Sequence record: SRR31156797_6845 | DNA: 64,000 nt | Direction: 5' to 3' (one strand) | Shown: one piece after another, positions 3-8,033 of the stretch | How the letters are laid out: every line of letters begins with the position of its first letter | Numbering within the stretch: position 1 is the stretch's first letter | Translations under genes and position numbers: made by a program | The notes under the pieces: generated by a model | The model's database searches: none | Told to the model about the DNA's origin: nothing | The model's input: the letters and a program-made list of their open reading frames with translations, nothing else

Positions 3-1034
3 CATCATACCCAGAAAAAAGGATTTACCGCTTCTGTAGCTTGGACGAACAAGGAAAAGAAAGCACAACAGCACGTTTTTGCCATAGACATACTTTTTGA
101 CGAAATTGAACTCCTTTTAAAGACCATTAATAAAAAGAAATCTTCGTTACTTTTTCTTGCCAATTCCAAGAATAACTATTTTATCACCGAACAACCTGAG
201 ATAGCAGATCGTTACGATCCTGACCATCTTGCAGGGGCCAGAACAGTACTGCCTGAAGTCATTGAGATATGGAAAGGTGAGGGAGCACCTGTCTCAAGCC
301 CTCTGGAACTGCGCATTAATAACCAGCAGTGGATCGCCTCTTTTCAACCCCTTTTCCCTGAACAAGCGTTTTTGTGGATAGGGGTAATATCAAATGATAA
401 AGCCCTGCTAGGATCCCTGGAAAAATCGCTTTTCACAATCGACATCTTTGATGTCGGCATTGCTTTCACTGCTGCCTTGCTGCTCTTTTTTGTAATATGG
501 AAAACAGGTCTATTCCGTCTTGATCCGCCACATGTCCCAACATCAAAGGAAAGATTTAGTCAATATCTAGCTGCGGGTGAAGGTGCAGCAATCGAATTTA
601 AATCAACCATCCGGACAAACCTGAAAACTAATAAACAAGGGAAGGAGATTGAATTTGCCTGGCTCAAGGCATTAACAGCCTTTCTCAATTGCCAGGGGGG
701 AGCCTTACTTCTAGGAGTGAATGACAACGGTGAACTACTGGGTTTGGACGCAGATATTTTTGAAAATGATGATAAAATCCTGCTTCATATAAAGAATCTT
801 ATAAACCATCACATCGGTGCTGAATTTTCGTCATACATCTCATTTTCATTGCTGAATATGAACCAGGGAAAGGCAATGATGATTGAGACCCTTCCAGCAG
901 CCAACCCTGTCTTTTTAAAAATTGGTAAAAACGAAGAATTTTATATCAGATCAGGCCCTTCTTCTATAAAACTGACACCAAGCCAAACGGTTAGCTTTGT
1001 GCTCCAGCATCAGGAGCAGAAGCAGCCAAATTAA
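3..1034 (+). CDS. 5'-partial membrane protein: Cache/PDC-like extracytoplasmic segment, TM helix, C-terminal Schlafen/AlbA_2 domain
   Basis: Frame is open from base 3, so the true start is upstream of the window. TM segment VGIAFTAALLLFFVIW. AlbA_2 motifs GEGAAIEFKST, AFLNCQGGALLLGVNDNG, FYIRSGPSS. Confidence 0.8.
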   Translation, partial: HHTQKKGFTASVAWTNKEKKAQQHVFAIDILFDEIELLLKTINKKKSSLLFLANSKNNYFITEQPEIADRYDPDHLAGARTVLPEVIEIWKGEGAPVSSPLELRINNQQWIASFQPLFPEQAFLWIGVISNDKALLGSLEKSLFTIDIFDVGIAFTAALLLFFVIWKTGLFRLDPPHVPTSKERFSQYLAAGEGAAIEFKSTIRTNLKTNKQGKEIEFAWLKALTAFLNCQGGALLLGVNDNGELLGLDADIFENDDKILLHIKNLINHHIGAEFSSYISFSLLNMNQGKAMMIETLPAANPVFLKIGKNEEFYIRSGPSSIKLTPSQTVSFVLQHQEQKQPN

Positions 1035-1062: not shown

Positions 1063-2874
1063 CTATGATAAGGAAGTATGCTTTTTCAAATCTAAATCAA
1101 CAAATTTTTTATAAACAGAATCTCCGGCCATCAGTTCTTTGTGGGTGCCTTGTGCAACAATAATTCCTTTATCGATAACGATAATACGATCTACCCTCCT
1201 GATGGTTGAAAGGCGATGAGCTATTATTAAAGAAGTACGCCCTTTAAACGATACCTCAACCGCATGTTCAAGCATCTTTTCCGATTCCACATCGATAGAC
1301 GATGTTGCCTCATCCAAGACCAGGATAGCTGGATCACGATACAGAGCACGCACAAAAGAAAGCAACTGTTTCTCCCCGACTGACAAATCCTTCACATCCT
1401 CACCGATAATCGTATTTAACCCTTTGGGCAATTTATCGATAAATGACTGGAGTCCTGTCTGGTTAAGGATGGTCGACAATTTATCTTGATCAAGGGGGCG
1501 GTCGAGGATGATATTGGCAAGAACCGTATCCGGAAAAATAAAAATATCCTGCATAATAATGCCAATATAGTTCCGTAACTCCTTTAACGAAAAATCGCGC
1601 AGATCGATTTGTTGAATTTTGATTAACCCTTGATCCGGGTCGTAAAACCTTGCCAGTAAATGAATCATGGTGGATTTTCCAGATCCAGTGGACCCAACCA
1701 GGGCAACGGATTCTCCGGTCTTGATTCTCAGGTCGATCCCCGTGAGAACCGGCACTTCTTTGTTGTAACCGAACCATATTCCATCAAAGCAAATATCACC
1801 TTGTGCCGGTGCTTTCCGAGGAACGATATTTGGGTCTCCATCCTTTAACCGTGGACAGGTATCAAGCAGTTGAAAAATTCGTTCGGCTGAAGCCATTGCA
1901 GACTGAACAATTGAATATTTCTGAGAGAGTTCACGCAATGGTTGAAAAAAAAGCCGCATATAAGAAAGAAAGGCAACAAGCTCACCAAGGGTCAACTGGC
2001 TGCGGATGATTTCACCGCCTCCATACCATAGAATCAAAGCCACTGCAGTTGAACTCATAAAGTCGGTCAGTGGCATAAATCCAGCAAACAAACGAACCTG
2101 CTTAATATTGCGTGTCAGATACTCGCTTGTCTGTTCGTCATATTTTTGCTGGCTTGTATGTTGACGGTTAAAAAGCTGTATAATATTTATCGATGTAAGC
2201 GATTCAGCAAGAAACCCATTCAACACTGCTACTTGAGTACGGATTTTACGAAATTTATCTCGAGCTATACGAGAAAAATAAAATGTTAACCAAAGGGCCA
2301 AAGGGATAAAAATAGTCATAAGCAGGGCAAGCCTGCCATTCATGTAATACAGAAGACAAAAGATACCAAACAACTTGAGGACATCATTAAACAGGGTGAC
2401 CATGACCGAGGTGAACATTTCATGCATATTCTGGACGTCATTGGTTAATCTGGTCACCAACTGCCCCACCCGCTGCTCATGAAAAAAATACATGTCAAGG
2501 GTAAGAATATGGGCAAAGAGTTTTTGTCGCACAGAATCCATTATTGACTGCCCGGCCCATTCAAGAAGAACTATTTGGGTAAATCCGCCACAGAAGACAA
2601 TGCCGACAAGCACACCGTAGCCAATAATGATATCGCGTAACCCTTCCAGCCGTTGCGGCATATCAAGCCCGGTTTGCGGAGCAATATAATTGTCGATGGC
2701 AAGCTGCATCAACTTTGGCAGCATAAGGCTGGCTATAGTGATAAGCAATGAAAGGAAAACCGCACTCCACAATGCTGCAGCATGCTGCCTACAATAGCTG
2801 AGAATACGACTCCAGAGATGCACATCTCTGACATTCCCCTGGTGCCCTTCTTCTGAATAACCGTAGTTACGCAT
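1063..2874 (-). CDS. ABC exporter permease/ATPase subunit (MdlB/YheH-like)
   Basis: N-terminal TMD; Walker A GSTGSGKS, degenerate signature LSVGEKQ, Walker B ILVLDEATSSID, H-loop IAHR. Confidence 0.92.
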   Translation of the reverse strand: MRNYGYSEEGHQGNVRDVHLWSRILSYCRQHAAALWSAVFLSLLITIASLMLPKLMQLAIDNYIAPQTGLDMPQRLEGLRDIIIGYGVLVGIVFCGGFTQIVLLEWAGQSIMDSVRQKLFAHILTLDMYFFHEQRVGQLVTRLTNDVQNMHEMFTSVMVTLFNDVLKLFGIFCLLYYMNGRLALLMTIFIPLALWLTFYFSRIARDKFRKIRTQVAVLNGFLAESLTSINIIQLFNRQHTSQQKYDEQTSEYLTRNIKQVRLFAGFMPLTDFMSSTAVALILWYGGGEIIRSQLTLGELVAFLSYMRLFFQPLRELSQKYSIVQSAMASAERIFQLLDTCPRLKDGDPNIVPRKAPAQGDICFDGIWFGYNKEVPVLTGIDLRIKTGESVALVGSTGSGKSTMIHLLARFYDPDQGLIKIQQIDLRDFSLKELRNYIGIIMQDIFIFPDTVLANIILDRPLDQDKLSTILNQTGLQSFIDKLPKGLNTIIGEDVKDLSVGEKQLLSFVRALYRDPAILVLDEATSSIDVESEKMLEHAVEVSFKGRTSLIIAHRLSTIRRVDRIIVIDKGIIVAQGTHKELMAGDSVYKKFVDLDLKKHTSLS

Positions 2875-4627
2875 CGGTTTGCTGTTTGTCTACCATTGCT
2901 CTATAAAAGGGATGTCCTAGTAATTGACTGTGATCACCCCGAGCGACCACCTCTCCCTTATCAAGAATAATTATATTATCAGCCAATTGAAGGACATTTA
3001 TTCGATGCGAAACAATGATAATTGACTGATAGCTTTGTGAAGAAAGTAAACTTTGCAATACCTGTTGCTCGGTCTCCACATCAATAGCATTCAAACCGTC
3101 ATCAATTACAAGTAAAGAACGATTGCACAGAAGGGCCCTGGCCAGGGCTAAACGTTGACGCTGCCCCCCGGAAAGTCGCACCCCCCGTTCACCGATAAGA
3201 GTAGCATAGCCTTCCGGGAGTTGTAGAATCTCCTCGTGGATGGCAGCCGCACGAGCTGCATCCTCTATTTCATCCTGACTCGCTCCAGGCCTCCCAAAGG
3301 CTATATTATACTTGATGGTTTCAGAAAAAAGTGTTGTTTCCTGCGGCAAATAAGCAATGTGTTTTCGTATTTCGTCCACAGCCAGGTCATTGACATCACT
3401 TTTGTTACAAAAAAGACACCCTCTCTTAACCGGGTACATTCGAAGCAGTAATTTGCACAGTGTTGATTTGCCAGATCCTGTCTTTCCTGTAATAGCAAAA
3501 TGTCCGGGTTCAATGTCCAAGCAGATGTCTGCGAGCACCTTTCTTTCTGTGTCGGGGTAGCAAAAGCTGAGGTGCCGACAGGTAAAATTCAAAGCAGATG
3601 CATTTGCCGAAATAGTACCCGTTCCGCTGATTACTATCGGCCTTTCATGGAGCAGGCGGTGAATTCTTCTTAAGGAAGTCATACCCCTTTGGACAACATT
3701 GGCAACCCAACCAACAGCCATCATTGGCCAAATCAACATATACATGTAGGTTATGAAAGCTACGAATTCACCAATGGTAATTACCTTAGTCATCACCAGA
3801 ATTCCGCCGTTATACAAGACAAGCAGCATGCCAATATTGCCGATTAAAGTAGATGCAGGAAAAAGAGCCCCCTGGATGACCGCGACATTGAGGTTGCTTT
3901 TGACATACTTTTTTCCCAATCGTGCGAACCGCTGCTGTTGCAGCCTTTCCAATGTGTAACCCTGGATTAGTTGGATTGATGTAAGTGTAGTGCGCGCAAA
4001 TTCAGTGATAAGGGCGAATTGCTCTTGGACAAGGTTGAAACGATTATGCAGCCGAGCGGATAAAATTCGAGTACAGATTGCCAAAAGCGGCATTGGCATG
4101 AGCGCATACAAGGTAAGTTTAGGACTTATTGCCACCATAAACCCAATGCCTACAGAAGTCAGCACCATGGCATCGACAGCTGCCACCAACCCCATACCGC
4201 AAGCCATCTGAATGGCATTTAAATCATTACTTGCATGGGCCATCAAATCACCAGTTTTCCAACGCTCAAAAAAAGGCTGATCCATCTTCAAAATATGGAC
4301 AAAAAGTTTGTCTCTTATATCTTTTTCCAGAATTCGTGAAAAACCAATGATAAGCAGGCGCCACCAAAATCGAAGAAACACAACACATGCTGCGGCACTG
4401 ATAATGGCAACACCCAACCATAAAAGAGAATCGGAGGTGGCACTCTTTTGGGCAAGCGAATCAACCCCTTGCCTAATAAACTTAGGGATGATTAATTGAA
4501 TAACATCCACACAAACCAGAGCAAAAAAACCTATCAAAAGACGTATTCTATACCTACGAAAAAGAGGAGCAATAATCTGCAAAACAGATTTCAGATTACT
4601 ATTTTTCCAAAACAAAAAGAAGCTCAT
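2867..4627 (-). CDS. ABC exporter permease/ATPase subunit (MdlA/YheI-like)
   Basis: TMD plus GKTGSGKS, LSGGQRQR and non-canonical Walker B LVIDDGLNAID; overlaps partner gene by 8 bp, typical of a heterodimeric exporter. Confidence 0.92.
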   Translation of the reverse strand: MSFFLFWKNSNLKSVLQIIAPLFRRYRIRLLIGFFALVCVDVIQLIIPKFIRQGVDSLAQKSATSDSLLWLGVAIISAAACVVFLRFWWRLLIIGFSRILEKDIRDKLFVHILKMDQPFFERWKTGDLMAHASNDLNAIQMACGMGLVAAVDAMVLTSVGIGFMVAISPKLTLYALMPMPLLAICTRILSARLHNRFNLVQEQFALITEFARTTLTSIQLIQGYTLERLQQQRFARLGKKYVKSNLNVAVIQGALFPASTLIGNIGMLLVLYNGGILVMTKVITIGEFVAFITYMYMLIWPMMAVGWVANVVQRGMTSLRRIHRLLHERPIVISGTGTISANASALNFTCRHLSFCYPDTERKVLADICLDIEPGHFAITGKTGSGKSTLCKLLLRMYPVKRGCLFCNKSDVNDLAVDEIRKHIAYLPQETTLFSETIKYNIAFGRPGASQDEIEDAARAAAIHEEILQLPEGYATLIGERGVRLSGGQRQRLALARALLCNRSLLVIDDGLNAIDVETEQQVLQSLLSSQSYQSIIIVSHRINVLQLADNIIILDKGEVVARGDHSQLLGHPFYRAMVDKQQTDA

Positions 4628-5628
4628 GGACGAGAGTGCAACAATTCGTTGTAGGCCGATGTTAACCTGACAAACTGATCATGATCACCGCCTTTGTCCG
4701 GATGCATGCTATGCGCCTTCTTACGATAGAGACGTGTTAATTGTTTTTTAGTCATAGCTGCTATCTGCTCATGGCTTACTTCAAAAACTGCTGCAGCTTC
4801 AGCCACAGACATTTTTTTTACCGAAGCAGGTGGCCGATAAGCTCTTCTCGCCCTTCTCTGTCGCTGTCCCATTGGGTTCCATGACAAATCCCCCTCATGA
4901 GCTAAATCAAAATACATAAACAAATATCGAAGCAAATACTTGGGAGTACCAGCACTTCTCTGATAACCTGCCCAAAATGCATGGTCTTGATCCAACTGAC
5001 AATACTCCTTAAGAAAATACTCATCTACTTTTTCCTGATCAAGAGTACTTGGGACTCTACGGGCATGTCGATCCATAAAAAAACGTTGCAGATCAAAAAT
5101 AGAAAACAGATAATTTCTATATTCCCGAGGCTGCAGATCCATTTCTCGAGATAGGATAAGCTGCTCAATTTCATCCCGCGACTTATTGAGCAAAACCTTA
5201 TAAAGAGGAGGAGATTTATCAAGAATTTGGGTGCTGCAATGACCGAACCGAAGGAAATGAATCCTTCTTTTATCAAGGACATGAGTTTCAGTAATGACTC
5301 GCACCCGCTCGCTCGCATCCATTGGCTGCCACTTACGATATTTGTGACGGTTGCGGAACGGCTCTAATTTATAACGTATATAGGGAGTAAGAAATGGGAA
5401 AAAGAGATCTTCCAGCTCATCTTCACTGGCACCCACTCCCTTTTTTTCCAATGCTTCGAGAATAACGTTATCGAGCTGATAATGGGAATCGTCTGAATAA
5501 ATGATGAATTTATCAGGGTGACGCCCAAGGTTAAACACACACCGAGACCTGTAAACACTACCCTCCCGAAATGATTGCCGTAAAACGTAGTGAACCCCAT
5601 GCCGAGTTGTTTTTTGCGCAAGATACAT
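4624..5628 (-). CDS. Protein with C-terminal J-domain (class C DnaJ-like)
   Basis: C-terminal YRKKAHSMHPDKGGD..F..L..AY with intact HPD. Confidence 0.85.
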   Translation of the reverse strand: MYLAQKTTRHGVHYVLRQSFREGSVYRSRCVFNLGRHPDKFIIYSDDSHYQLDNVILEALEKKGVGASEDELEDLFFPFLTPYIRYKLEPFRNRHKYRKWQPMDASERVRVITETHVLDKRRIHFLRFGHCSTQILDKSPPLYKVLLNKSRDEIEQLILSREMDLQPREYRNYLFSIFDLQRFFMDRHARRVPSTLDQEKVDEYFLKEYCQLDQDHAFWAGYQRSAGTPKYLLRYLFMYFDLAHEGDLSWNPMGQRQRRARRAYRPPASVKKMSVAEAAAVFEVSHEQIAAMTKKQLTRLYRKKAHSMHPDKGGDHDQFVRLTSAYNELLHSRP

Positions 5629-5689: not shown

Positions 5690-7672
5690 TCAAGTGTTCA
5701 CCTGATGCAGAAAATGCTGCACAACATAATCCACCGTATCAATGGAAAAGGGTTTGGTAAGAGCGGCAACAAACCCATATTCTTTATAATTGAGAATAAC
5801 CTCATTGCCAGCATCCCCACTGATTAAAATAATCTTTGCCTCTGGGTTGCAATCAAGGATTTTTTCAGAAGTCTGTACCCCGCCCATACCTTCACTGACT
5901 CTTAAATCAAGCAAAATCAAGTCAAATCCTGCTCCCTCTTTTTCGCCTTTGAGAAAAAGAGACACCGCCTCTTCACCGCTTGCAGCGAGACTGACGTTAC
6001 AATTATAGTGCTGAAACATCTTTTTATTAATAATGCGCATCATTTCGTCGTCGTCCATGACCAGCACCCGTGGCTGTCGGGCAAGATGTTCTTCAAACAT
6101 TGCTTCGCTCGTTACAGATGGTTCAGCCAGAGGCAAATACATGTGGACGGCGCATCCCAAGCCAGGGGATGACTCAACCCAAACTATGCCTCGATGTTTT
6201 TTGATAGTGGAATGTACTATAGTCAAACCAAGCCCCATTCCTTTCTGGGCCCCCTTTTGCTTAGTTGAAAAGTAGGGATCAAATACATGGTCTAAAATTT
6301 CAGGGGCAATACCTGATCCGGTATCTTTAAAAATAATTCGGACCAGTTCACAGGAAGGCAGAGGTTGTCCAGTCTGCCCAGCTTCTATTTCACCATCTAC
6401 ACTCTCCATGGCTACATGAATAGTGCCGCTGTCATTCATAGCATCAACCGCATTACTGGTGAGATTGGTCAAAACCTGATGAATGAGTGAAGCATCTAAT
6501 TTTAACGATGCATCCCTGCTCTTGTCTTCTACCTGCAAAGAAATATTGGTACCTTCAAGTTCATCCTGAAGCGTCTTCGTCACCAGTTCGCTCAGGTTCA
6601 CCATTTTTATTTGCGGTAAATAATTATCAGAAAAAGTGGTGAATTTCCGGATTAGCTGAACGGTTAACTGCAGCGCCTTGGCAGCTTCATCAAGTAACTC
6701 ATCAACCGCTTTCTCCTTGCTCAAAAAACGAGACATTTCAAGGTTGCCGCTGATGATAGTCAACAAGTTATTGAAATCATGGGCAATACCTCCTGCCATC
6801 ACTGACATCGCATCAATTTTCTGAATCCGGTGCAGTTCCTTTTCAAGTTTTCGTTGTTTCTTTTCAAGAAGCTTGTGTGATGTAATATCCTTGAGAATGC
6901 CTATGATAAAAATTGTCTCATCTTCAGGTACAGGGACAAAATTCATAATAACCTGTTGCCCTGCCAAGCTAACAGGCTTGTCATAATCAAAAACCAGTGG
7001 TGTCAAATCATCAGGCGGCACAAGAGAGGCAATCCATTTTTTTACAACCTGCTGCTCTTTTCCTGGAATCATATTATAGATGCGATTGCTTAGGATCTGC
7101 GCCTCATCAATCCCAAAAAGCTGTATGGCCGCGCTGTTTGCCATCACGATTCTGCCTTCATGGTTCAGTTCAACTACACCTTCAGTCATGTTTGCTAATA
7201 TGACATCACGATGTCGTTTGCTGACCAGGAGTTCTTTTGTCACCTCCCTTGGGTAAAGGTCCTCCATCCCTTCTATGGTGCCATCGTTGCAAACTCCTGA
7301 CTTAAATTTTACCAAAGCTGCCTGGATATGGGTTCGCATGGTTGCCGCAGGCCCCTTGGCAATACAAACGTCAGCTCCTATCTTGGTTGTATGATAGTCA
7401 TCTTCCATAGCAACGCCTGAAAGGATAACCAAAAATATATGCTTCAACTCAGGAGTATTGCGGATGATAAAGGAAAGCTTCTCACCATCTATCTTTGGCA
7501 TAATCAGATCGGTAAAAATGATATCCGGTCTGCGGGAGGCTATAAAATCGAGGGCTTCCAGTCCATTTTCAGCAGTTTGGACATACCAGCCTTCTTTTTC
7601 GAGCACAGAACTGACTATTCGGCGTATCACCGGACTATTATCTACCACAAGGGCATATGGCTGATTATCCAT
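5690..7672 (-). CDS. Hybrid sensor histidine kinase REC-PAS-HisKA-HATPase-REC
   Basis: N-terminal REC (FTDLIMPKIDG), PAS, H-box AGGIAHDFNNLL, G-boxes DTGSG/GMGLGL, C-terminal REC; ATG at 7672 preferred over TTG at 7678. Confidence 0.9.
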   Translation of the reverse strand: MDNQPYALVVDNSPVIRRIVSSVLEKEGWYVQTAENGLEALDFIASRRPDIIFTDLIMPKIDGEKLSFIIRNTPELKHIFLVILSGVAMEDDYHTTKIGADVCIAKGPAATMRTHIQAALVKFKSGVCNDGTIEGMEDLYPREVTKELLVSKRHRDVILANMTEGVVELNHEGRIVMANSAAIQLFGIDEAQILSNRIYNMIPGKEQQVVKKWIASLVPPDDLTPLVFDYDKPVSLAGQQVIMNFVPVPEDETIFIIGILKDITSHKLLEKKQRKLEKELHRIQKIDAMSVMAGGIAHDFNNLLTIISGNLEMSRFLSKEKAVDELLDEAAKALQLTVQLIRKFTTFSDNYLPQIKMVNLSELVTKTLQDELEGTNISLQVEDKSRDASLKLDASLIHQVLTNLTSNAVDAMNDSGTIHVAMESVDGEIEAGQTGQPLPSCELVRIIFKDTGSGIAPEILDHVFDPYFSTKQKGAQKGMGLGLTIVHSTIKKHRGIVWVESSPGLGCAVHMYLPLAEPSVTSEAMFEEHLARQPRVLVMDDDEMMRIINKKMFQHYNCNVSLAASGEEAVSLFLKGEKEGAGFDLILLDLRVSEGMGGVQTSEKILDCNPEAKIILISGDAGNEVILNYKEYGFVAALTKPFSIDTVDYVVQHFLHQVNT

Positions 7673-8033
7673 TTTCAAGAAGCTCCTTTACTGTCTGCGC
7701 CAACTCTTTTACATCAAAGGGTTTACTGAACACTCTGTCTGCCCCTAGTTCCTTTGCAGCCGGGAGGTAGGCCTCAGGCCCAATACGTCCCCCTCCAGAG
7801 ATGGCAATAATACGAACAGTAGGATACATATTTTTAAGTTCGGTGATGGTCTCCAACCCTTCCTGTTCCGGCATTATTAAGTCAGTTATAACGAGGTCTG
7901 CCTGCAGTTTTTGCTGCATTTTCATGCCAGCCCGGCCATCCTCAGCCTCCACCACCTCATACCCGGCCCACTCCATCACCTGGCGAAGTAATTTCCGCAT
8001 TTGCTCATCATCGTCTATAACTAGTACTCTCAT
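7665..8033 (-). CDS. Single-domain response regulator
   Basis: VLVIDDD, ITDLIMP, KPF receiver motifs. Confidence 0.92.
   Translation of the reverse strand: MRVLVIDDDEQMRKLLRQVMEWAGYEVVEAEDGRAGMKMQQKLQADLVITDLIMPEQEGLETITELKNMYPTVRIIAISGGGRIGPEAYLPAAKELGADRVFSKPFDVKELAQTVKELLENG

Follow-up and report, generated by a model that had tools for sequence, protein, structure and literature searches.

A two-pass dCache receptor with a single Schlafen/AlbA_2 domain as its only cytoplasmic part: a candidate ligand-gated RNase

Known outputs of bacterial transmembrane (TM) receptors are kinases, chemotaxis arrays, cyclases, phosphodiesterases and phosphatases. The gene that opens the stretch of DNA analysed here (64,000 nucleotides of sequence record SRR31156797_6845; hereafter the window) places a Schlafen/AlbA_2 nuclease-like domain behind a membrane sensor, and raises the question of what such a protein senses and what it does with the signal. 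The gene encodes a two-pass membrane receptor composed of a first TM helix (TM1), a dCache sensor, a second TM helix (TM2), a short linker and one Schlafen/AlbA_2 domain. The explanation favoured here, which is given about an even chance, is a ligand-gated and probably amino-acid-gated receptor with a Schlafen RNase output, coupling an external cue to the control of translation or growth.

Within the window, the gene lies in frame 3 of the plus strand, which is open without a stop from base 3 to the stop codon at 1032-1034 and yields 343 aa with no start visible; as the initial annotation had stated, the frame runs in from the window edge and only the 3' part can be seen. Judged against the relatives P0005 and P0006, about 180 codons of the 5' part would lie outside the window. 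The sequence strings named in that annotation all occur in the translated fragment (QWIASFQPL at aa 109-117, LWIGVIS at aa 124-130, EGAAIEFK at aa 193-200 and G-V-N-D at aa 238-241), as does the single TM helix, represented by one strongly hydrophobic 19-residue window (aa 148-166, mean Kyte-Doolittle value 2.34); Lys and Arg stand C-terminal of TM2. The cytoplasmic AlbA_2 domain with intact ExxxxEFK and GVxD motifs is likewise there: the fragment matches Pfam SLFN_AlbA_2 (PF04326) at aa 193-324 (E 3e-16; 60.5 bits, gathering cut-off 25.3) over profile positions 1-117 of 118, and E193, E198, K200 and D241 are present. This is the sole Pfam family of the fragment. The sensor segment alone gives no Pfam Cache match, including dCache_1, and an NCBIfam scan of the fragment returned a single chance-level match (E 0.029). 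The parts of the gene are the following.

3..1034, plus strand: receptor gene, 3' 343 codons and stop; open frame, cut by the window edge.
3..95, plus strand: end of the membrane-distal PDC module of the dCache sensor (P0005 model, strands to residue 210).
96..431, plus strand: connecting helix, membrane-proximal PDC module and C-terminal sensor helix, aa 32-143 (P0005 helix 211-222, strand region 228-310, helix 311-322).
444..506, plus strand: second TM helix, aa 148-168 (Kyte-Doolittle 2.34; helix 327-347 in the P0005 model).
507..575, plus strand: variable Pro-containing linker, aa 169-180, and helix, aa 181-191 (low-confidence 348-359 and helix 360-370 in the P0005 model; helix 5-15 in the model of the cytoplasmic domain).
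576..1031, plus strand: cytoplasmic SLFN_AlbA_2 (Schlafen C-lobe-like) domain and C-terminal helix (PF04326, AlphaFold2 model, fold matches).
579..602, plus strand: Ex4ExK active-site motif with Glu193 (579-581), Glu198 (594-596) and Lys200 (600-602), invariant and aligned to SLFN14 E206/E211/K213.
723..725, plus strand: Asp241 of GVxD, the third acidic active-site residue, invariant and aligned to SLFN14 D249.

The full-length protein was reconstructed from relatives of the fragment. A word-seeded homologue search in a near-length band returned 293 proteins at E <= 0.001, the best of which reach E 1.8e-178 and below, a similarity far beyond chance. Among the best 120 of these 293, nearly all are ~510-535 aa long, all have a precomputed PF04326 match, and 61 have a Cache-type match (PF02743 and/or PF22673; manual count). 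The closest relative, P0005, has 526 aa and shares 80% identity over 99% of the fragment, with residue N of the window corresponding to P0005 residue N+179; P0006 (Desulfogranum marinum) has 522 aa and is 76% identical to the fragment. Because the Cache models of Pfam stay under their cut-offs in the relatives, the fold was tested by structural modelling. The AlphaFold2 model of P0005, built on a 71-row alignment (mean pLDDT 87.1), has the order TM1, dCache, TM2, AlbA_2: a TM helix extending into a long helix (2-71), a membrane-distal PDC module (97-210), a membrane-proximal PDC module (228-310), TM2 (327-347), a low-confidence segment (348-359) and then a compact, very confident C-terminal domain. 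Kyte-Doolittle windows show two hydrophobic segments each in P0005, P0006 and P0010. When the P0005 model was compared with the PDB using Foldseek, the top matches were the dCache_1 ligand-binding domains of Mlp24, PscC, Tlp3, CtaA and PctA (E about 1e-9; TM-score on target 0.65-0.72), and the family profile finds Mlp24 (E 2.6e-7) and PctA (E 4.3e-7) among PDB sequences, its best matches ranging from 2.6e-7 to 1e-5. The long N-terminal helix, two PDC modules and flanking TM helices of a dCache receptor are all seen in the relatives, and the window itself shows TM2 and the C-terminal half of the sensor, in which QWIASFQPL and LWIGVIS fall on the two strands that close the membrane-proximal module (residues 287-295 and 303-310 of P0005).

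The Cache-like character that the initial annotation had assigned to this segment therefore holds, by way of the P0005 model and the PDB fold matches and without a Pfam match in the fragment. So does its expectation that the full-length protein would have an N-terminal TM helix and a Cache fold, through the models, fold matches and hydrophobicity of the relatives. The broader proposal of a one-component TM receptor with an RNase or nucleic-acid-binding output stands as regards architecture, since Pfam scans of the fragment and seven relatives gave no kinase, cyclase, MCP or HAMP domain and the single AlbA_2 domain is the only cytoplasmic part; the RNase activity stays a prediction. A search for longer homologues gave four matches, all through AlbA_2 alone, and no longer fused form of the receptor was found.

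The output domain is the most conserved part of the protein, with a mean pairwise identity of 70% compared with 38% in the sensor and 35% in the linker (P0005 348-370). A 66-row alignment of the cytoplasmic domain (the window and 65 genome loci) has 29 invariant columns, including E17, E22, F23, K24 and D65 (window E193, E198, F199, K200 and D241), and many Lys and Arg of the domain are invariant. Conservation of the E/E/K/D residues among homologues, which the initial annotation had made a touchstone of its reading, is complete in the three alignments made (66/66, 71/71 and 76/76 rows), and all seven relatives scanned match PF04326 (57.6-73.1 bits). The AlphaFold2 model of the window's own cytoplasmic domain (pLDDT 94.9) matches, at E 4e-6 to 1e-3 in Foldseek, the PDB structures of the human SAMD9 DNA-binding domain (7ksp, the best match), the rat SAMD9 tRNase (9o0d), the bacterial AlbA_2 protein DIP2311 (3lmm) and SLFN14, 11, 12, 5 and 13, with a TMq of 0.64 for SAMD9. 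The family profile matches SLFN14 at E 3.3e-6, and the alignment sets domain residues E17/E22/K24/D65 on SLFN14 E206/E211/K213/D249, which agrees with the earlier statement that the motif residues correspond to the Schlafen RNase site; one SLFN14 entry in the PDB was deposited as an E211A mutant.

The domain thus has the features of the Schlafen motif, Ex4(E/D)xK and the downstream Asp of GVxD. The Ex4(E/D)xK motif has been reported for 5,930 prokaryotic Schlafens, and its mutation abolishes defence by RorSlfn5 (Perez Taboada et al., PMC13056530); in CbCash, the triad E17/D22/K24 holds Mg2+ at the scissile phosphate (PMC13462974). The link between sensor-fused prokaryotic Schlafens, tRNA cleavage and phage defence, which the initial annotation had drawn, is likewise published (PMC13056530, PMC13462974). 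The two-lobed core of mammalian Schlafens (N-lobe and C-lobe) is absent, the single AlbA_2 domain after TM2 representing the prokaryotic single-lobe form. Judged from its residues, the active site is intact, and by analogy with CbCash, RorSlfn5 and RzAgo the output is likely a Schlafen RNase acting on tRNA. A homodimer prediction with two copies of the cytoplasmic domain, run without a family alignment, returned no verdict for or against pairing (score 0.11, mark 0.32).

The sensor offers a clue to the ligand. Amino-acid binding by dCache_1 domains relies on a motif (AA_motif) comprising Y121/R126/W128/Y144/D173 of PctA (Gumerov et al., PMC8915833). In a HMMER alignment, these residues fall on P0005 Y154/R159/W161/Y177/D208, with the same spacing of 16 residues from W to Y as in PctA. 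The window shows only the last residue of the motif, Asp29 (nt 87-89), which lies in the end of the membrane-distal PDC module, is the counterpart of PctA D173 in the profile alignment to PctA and Mlp24, and is D in 67 of 71 alignment rows. The motif is complete in the two closest relatives (P0005 and P0006), in 56 of the 70 full-length rows of alignment A1 and in 63 of 76 locus proteins, these comprising 39/52 members of a Desulfobulbia-rich clade and 24/24 of a Gammaproteobacteria-rich clade. Because the motif is kept, an amino acid or close analogue, bound in the membrane-distal pocket, is the best guess for the ligand.

One further observation concerns sensing. In 14 of 74 loci, the receptor gene is directly preceded, on its own strand and at a distance of -37 to 133 nt, by a gene for a family-3 solute-binding protein (SBP; SBP_bac_3, E 3e-30), and no amino-acid ABC permease is found beside the SBP gene. 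At the window's own locus, a counterpart would fall outside the window, upstream of its edge. The encoded protein could be a co-sensor docking on the dCache domain, or its position could be plain synteny.

L001 7044-7928 and L002 7111-7950, plus strand: SBP_bac_3 gene in the two closest relatives (present in 12 further loci).

In the mechanism proposed for the receptor, the ligand, RNase activity, tRNA substrate, control through oligomer geometry, sign of regulation and physiological role are inferred. An amino acid or analogue would bind the membrane-distal pocket of the periplasmic dCache domain of an inner-membrane receptor that probably acts as a dimer or higher oligomer, like Cache receptors. 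Binding would shift TM2 and, with it, the short helix at aa 181-191, whose end lies two residues before Glu193, the first catalytic residue. Either the mutual arrangement of two or more membrane-held single-lobe Schlafen domains or the position of the helix would then change, and a metal-dependent endoribonuclease site, with tRNA as the most likely substrate, would be opened or closed. The likely role of such a device would be to let a chemical cue from outside act directly on the control of translation or growth. The oligomer-rearrangement mechanism is proposed because of this helix, which follows TM2 after about 12 variable residues, the signalling mode of Cache receptors and the precedents among bacterial Schlafens. 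Cache receptors are described in general terms as signalling as dimers via movement of the helix leading into TM2 (PMC8915833). CbCash passes from a closed dodecamer to a cA4-induced filament on activation (PMC13462974); AlbA_2 pairing in RzAgo rebuilds the two-lobed architecture of mammalian Schlafens, one protomer giving the active site and the other a basic face (preprint 10.64898/2026.05.29.728809); and in RorSlfn5 the switch is a phage protein that binds the Ig-like domain (PMC13056530). In all three, as described in these sources, a single Schlafen lobe cuts tRNA only once the sensor rearranges the oligomer.

The family is large and widespread. A scan with one genome per species found relatives encoded in 249 species genomes, mostly of Desulfobulbia with some Gammaproteobacteria. 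Of the 249 stretches, 80 were kept for locus analysis, which gave 79 called locus proteins (L072 gave no open reading frame (ORF) call) and, after removal of three shorter than 480 aa, the 76-member set used above. An exhaustive search with the cytoplasmic domain returned 5,003 representatives (50% clusters) at E <= 0.001, among which 315 match at E <= 1e-30; most of the best 150 of these 315 are 490-560 aa long, carry AlbA_2 at the C-terminus from about residue 350-400 and share the same architecture. The gene is single-copy in the four genomes checked, and is found in 58 of 300 genomes of the order, again as a single copy in each of the 58. A FastTree phylogeny built on 77 rows places the window with D. 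marinum (support 99) and next with D. mediterraneum. Taxon labels change 17 times on the tree, compared with a mean of 35.4 after shuffling, and none of 200 shuffles gave so low a value; copies of the gene group by taxon. Two relatives (L052 and L072) come from bins labelled 'archaeon' and Verrucomicrobiota, one each. The 'archaeon' copy groups with deltaproteobacterial metagenome-assembled genomes in the tree, which may reflect mis-binning or transfer.

The same AlbA_2 subtype also occurs in proteins of other architecture (P0001/P0002, P0003, P0004, P0253, P0260 and P0232). The C-terminal AlbA_2 domain of P0001, a BrxL-like ATPase, is 45% identical over 159 aa, and in proteins with BrxL_N and BrxL_ATPase domains the subtype sits at the C-terminus in place of the Lon protease domain. 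It is also C-terminal in a GmrSD_N protein and in a 1,988-aa DUF4011-helicase-MTES_1575 nuclease. Further examples are a REC-AlbA_2-REC-HD-GYP response regulator (P0253), a HATPase_c_2-GNAT protein and a protein in which the domain follows a lone TM helix. Its presence in the response regulator and behind a single TM helix indicates that the module is used in signalling proteins too.

The genes next to the receptor were surveyed in the window and in its relatives. Between the end of the receptor gene and a convergent pair of ABC-transporter genes lie 28 nt; the pair is followed by two further genes on its strand.

1063-2874, minus strand: ABC-transporter gene, 603 aa; overlaps the next ABC gene.
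2867-4627, minus strand: ABC-transporter gene, 586 aa; overlaps the previous ABC gene.
4624-5628, minus strand: gene for a 334-aa protein; no NCBIfam or PADLOC match.
5690-7678, minus strand: 662-aa ORF of neighbour cluster c3 (13 loci), identified by translation; presumably a hybrid sensor kinase, with receiver domains at both ends as judged by eye.

The ABC pair converging on the receptor gene is kept in five loci of relatives (L001, L002, L003, L012 and L040), and the 334-aa protein adjoins the pair in eight loci; in L001, the corresponding protein shows no more than a weak match to the J-domain (DnaJ) at its C-terminus (E 9.4e-5, below cut-off). The gene order of ABC pair, J-domain protein and presumed hybrid kinase is common to the window, D. 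marinum, D. mediterraneum and L012. A terminator scan of positions 900-1300 found none. The GC content of the receptor gene (41%, compared with 39-47% in the next 11 kb) carries no foreign signature. An operon-level system with a conserved partner gene was considered and rejected because the commonest neighbour cluster occurs in only 17 of 80 loci.

Pfam scans of 20 representatives of neighbour clusters returned transport, lipid-trafficking, methyltransferase, molybdenum-cofactor and similar genes, and no restriction-modification, integrase or other mobile-element family. In PADLOC, the fragment, P0005 and P0006 match no family. The PADLOC scan of neighbours covered 138 proteins (three genes on each side in 23 of 42 eligible loci) and hit 12 families, none of them of restriction-modification, integrase or mobile-element type. 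Only mad2, mad3 and mad8 recur (7, 6 and 6 members), and the mad3 and mad8 matches are generic, since the window's ordinary ABC-transporter ATPases alone give them. Single-member families are PDC-S08, C3a214, PDC-S07, PD-T4-6, PDC-M71B and three ZorB/MotB models (not necessarily separate proteins). Within these scans, no coherent defence neighbourhood was found around the family. Two other associations were noted among the loci. In four Gammaproteobacteria loci, the first or second gene downstream, encoded on the opposite strand, has PolyA_pol head and RNA-binding domains and is of the type of CCA-adding enzymes or poly(A) polymerases; as a neighbour of a putative tRNase it is suggestive, although the four genomes are related. 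In seven loci, a pair of genes (~140 and ~620 aa) stands on one side or the other of the receptor gene; no Pfam family is matched by either of them, and the small protein (138 aa) matches the NCBIfam 'putative lipoprotein'.

L064 9505-10707, minus strand: PolyA_pol gene (also in L058, L065 and L077).
L010 5608-7885, plus strand: flanking gene pair (also in L014, L018, L023, L033, L041 and L043).

Several findings weigh against a ligand-gated RNase receptor. Published prokaryotic Schlafens act in phage defence, and the nearest AlbA_2 relatives outside the family sit in proteins of defence type (BrxL, GmrSD_N, helicase-restriction endonuclease). The presence of the gene in 58 of 300 genomes of the order also fits an accessory gene. 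The best structural match of the output domain, 7ksp, is a DNA-bound SAMD9 domain, which is compatible with DNA binding, and the linker between TM2 and this domain is short, variable and non-helical, with neither HAMP nor coiled coil and no obvious rigid path for a signal. On the sensor side, the N-terminal third of the window gene lies outside the window; Pfam dCache_1 (PF02743) stays below its gathering score of 45 in all seven relatives scanned (13.1-31.6 bits in five, no match in two), and MCP-like_PDC_1 (PF22673) passes in only one of the seven (31.2 bits against 27). The AA_motif is incomplete in 13 of the 76 members, and amino acids therefore cannot be the ligand of the whole family.

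The likeliest of the alternatives, although an improbable one, is an antiphage or abortive-infection effector, in which the dCache domain would detect a phage component or an event at the envelope, whereupon tRNA cleavage by the Schlafen domain would halt phage production. It would place the protein among the sensor-fused defence nucleases that bacterial Schlafens are described to be, 69.6% of 5,930 lying within 10 kb of a defence gene (PMC13056530), and both the fusions of the nearest outside AlbA_2 domains to BrxL, GmrSD_N and helicase/restriction-endonuclease parts and the patchy distribution within the order are in keeping with it. By the same source, however, the remaining 30.4% of prokaryotic Schlafen (pSlfn) genes lie away from defence genes and may be non-immune (PMC13056530). 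The protein has no PADLOC match, the matches of its neighbours are generic or single, and no restriction-modification, integrase or mobile-element family appeared among the neighbours scanned. A motif for a small-molecule amino-acid pocket, kept in 63 of the 76 members, also speaks against a phage-defence role. The single copy, the tree clustered by taxon, the stable synteny with D. marinum and D. mediterraneum and the unremarkable GC content all speak for signalling, and the gene has the appearance of a signalling device of the chromosome more than of a member of a defence island. The balance of evidence leans towards placing signalling ahead of defence, though not by a wide margin.

Two further explanations keep the receptor and alter its output or input. 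A ligand-gated nuclease might act on another substrate (rRNA, membrane-proximal mRNA or DNA) or sense its ligand indirectly through the upstream family-3 SBP; this is a shade less likely than defence. Mammalian Schlafens cut rRNA too (preprint 10.64898/2026.09.30.754977), whereas the bacterial Schlafens characterised in PMC13462974, preprint 10.64898/2026.05.29.728809 and PMC13056530 all cut tRNA. The SBP gene stands directly upstream in the closest relatives, L001 and L002, but is absent from 60 of the 74 loci, is confined to one subclade and may reflect plain synteny, and the motif for direct binding is intact. Least likely of those considered is a membrane-tethered regulator that binds nucleic acid without cleaving it, in the manner of ToxR or CadC, the ligand altering expression through an AlbA_2 domain bound to DNA or RNA. 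The DNA-bound SAMD9 match, the many invariant basic residues and the names given to the proteins in their source ('AlbA family DNA-binding domain-containing protein', 'RNA-binding domain-containing protein') agree with such a regulator, and several mammalian Schlafens are described as lacking catalysis (PMC13462974). Binding alone would nevertheless have no need of four active-site residues kept in all 76 members across two distant clades; Pfam scans of the fragment and seven relatives detect no helix-turn-helix (HTH) or other DNA-reading domain; no adjacent target gene or operon is conserved; and the SAMD9 domain has itself been deposited as a tRNase (9o0d).

Compared with known systems, the receptor combines parts that have been described separately. 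It shares with the pSlfn proteins typified by RorSlfn5 (PMC13056530) a single Schlafen C-lobe-like domain with Ex4(E/D)xK and a sensor in the same polypeptide, and tRNA cleavage on sensor activation would be the chemistry expected here by analogy; the DUF262/GmrSD_N fusion of that study also carries the AlbA_2 subtype of the window. The sensors described there are, however, cytoplasmic (Ig-like, histidine-kinase-like ATPase, HTH, DUF262) and the nuclease is N-terminal, whereas here it is C-terminal, behind two TM helices and an extracytoplasmic small-molecule sensor, and no defence neighbourhood was found in the scans of neighbouring genes. In Cash proteins such as CbCash (Schlafen and Csx15, type III CRISPR; PMC13462974), a small-ligand sensor governs a single-lobe Schlafen tRNase through oligomer geometry, as is proposed here, and E17/D22/K24 with Mg2+ corresponds to E193/E198/K200. 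CbCash differs in that its ligand is intracellular cA4 from Cas10, its sensor is a Rossmann-like Csx15 domain and its transition is from a soluble dodecamer to a filament; no Csx15 domain was found by Pfam in the fragment and seven relatives, and no CRISPR-type PADLOC match among the 138 neighbours.

On the sensor side, the topology, fold and Y-R-W-Y-D ligand motif are those of the dCache_1AA receptors (PctA, Mlp24, Tlp3 and CtaA; PMC8915833). The outputs named in that source are MCPsignal, HATPase_c, GGDEF, EAL, Guanylate_cyc, HD, Pkinase and SpoIIE, with no nuclease among them; in the present family, by contrast, neither HAMP nor a signalling helix separates TM2 from the output, and the sequence is too diverged for the Pfam dCache_1 cut-off. 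Mammalian Schlafens (SLFN11, 13 and 14) and the SAMD9 AlbA_2 tRNase have the same fold and E/E/K/D active site and are distant (profile E 3.3e-6; 12-23% identity in Foldseek structural alignments). The mammalian SLFN proteins have two lobes, a linker and a helicase, whereas one lobe is present here, so that the RNA-binding face would have to come from another protomer, as it does in RzAgo.

The combination of dCache or Cache with Schlafen/AlbA_2 was not found in full-text literature searches of main texts. The main text of PMC13056530 has no occurrence of 'membrane', 'transmembrane' or 'Cache', and the 55 architectures of its Supplementary Table 2, which lie beyond that count, may list the combination; the architecture section of the SLFN-pAgo preprint mentions no sensor-TM-Schlafen combination. 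Both halves are known and sensor-fused Schlafen nucleases are established; the novelty lies in joining a small-molecule sensor outside the cytoplasm, by way of two TM helices, to a nuclease that is the sole output. That this amounts to an undescribed class of TM transducer with an RNA-cleavage output, in which an external amino acid, read by a dCache_1AA domain, directly gates a Schlafen tRNase, is put forward tentatively and with some doubt.

A nuclease-ended receptor of this kind would add a direct route from an outside chemical to RNA cleavage. Both halves have established assays (isothermal titration calorimetry for dCache domains, tRNA cleavage for Schlafens) and cultured hosts exist (Desulfogranum marinum DSM 2058, D. 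mediterraneum, Desulfopila aestuarii and Desulfosarcina widdelii), so the idea lends itself to direct testing; an RNase switched by ligand on a membrane scaffold could find use as a tool as well. The current view holds Schlafen nucleases, in organisms ranging from bacteria to humans, to be immune effectors. A family that is large, single-copy and stable on the chromosome and has an amino-acid sensor at its front would be a test case for non-immune, regulatory tRNA cleavage. If the proposal is true, it would be the first non-immune job of a prokaryotic Schlafen, and a marine sulfate reducer could tune translation or enter growth arrest in response to outside nutrients without a second messenger, phosphorelay or transcription factor.

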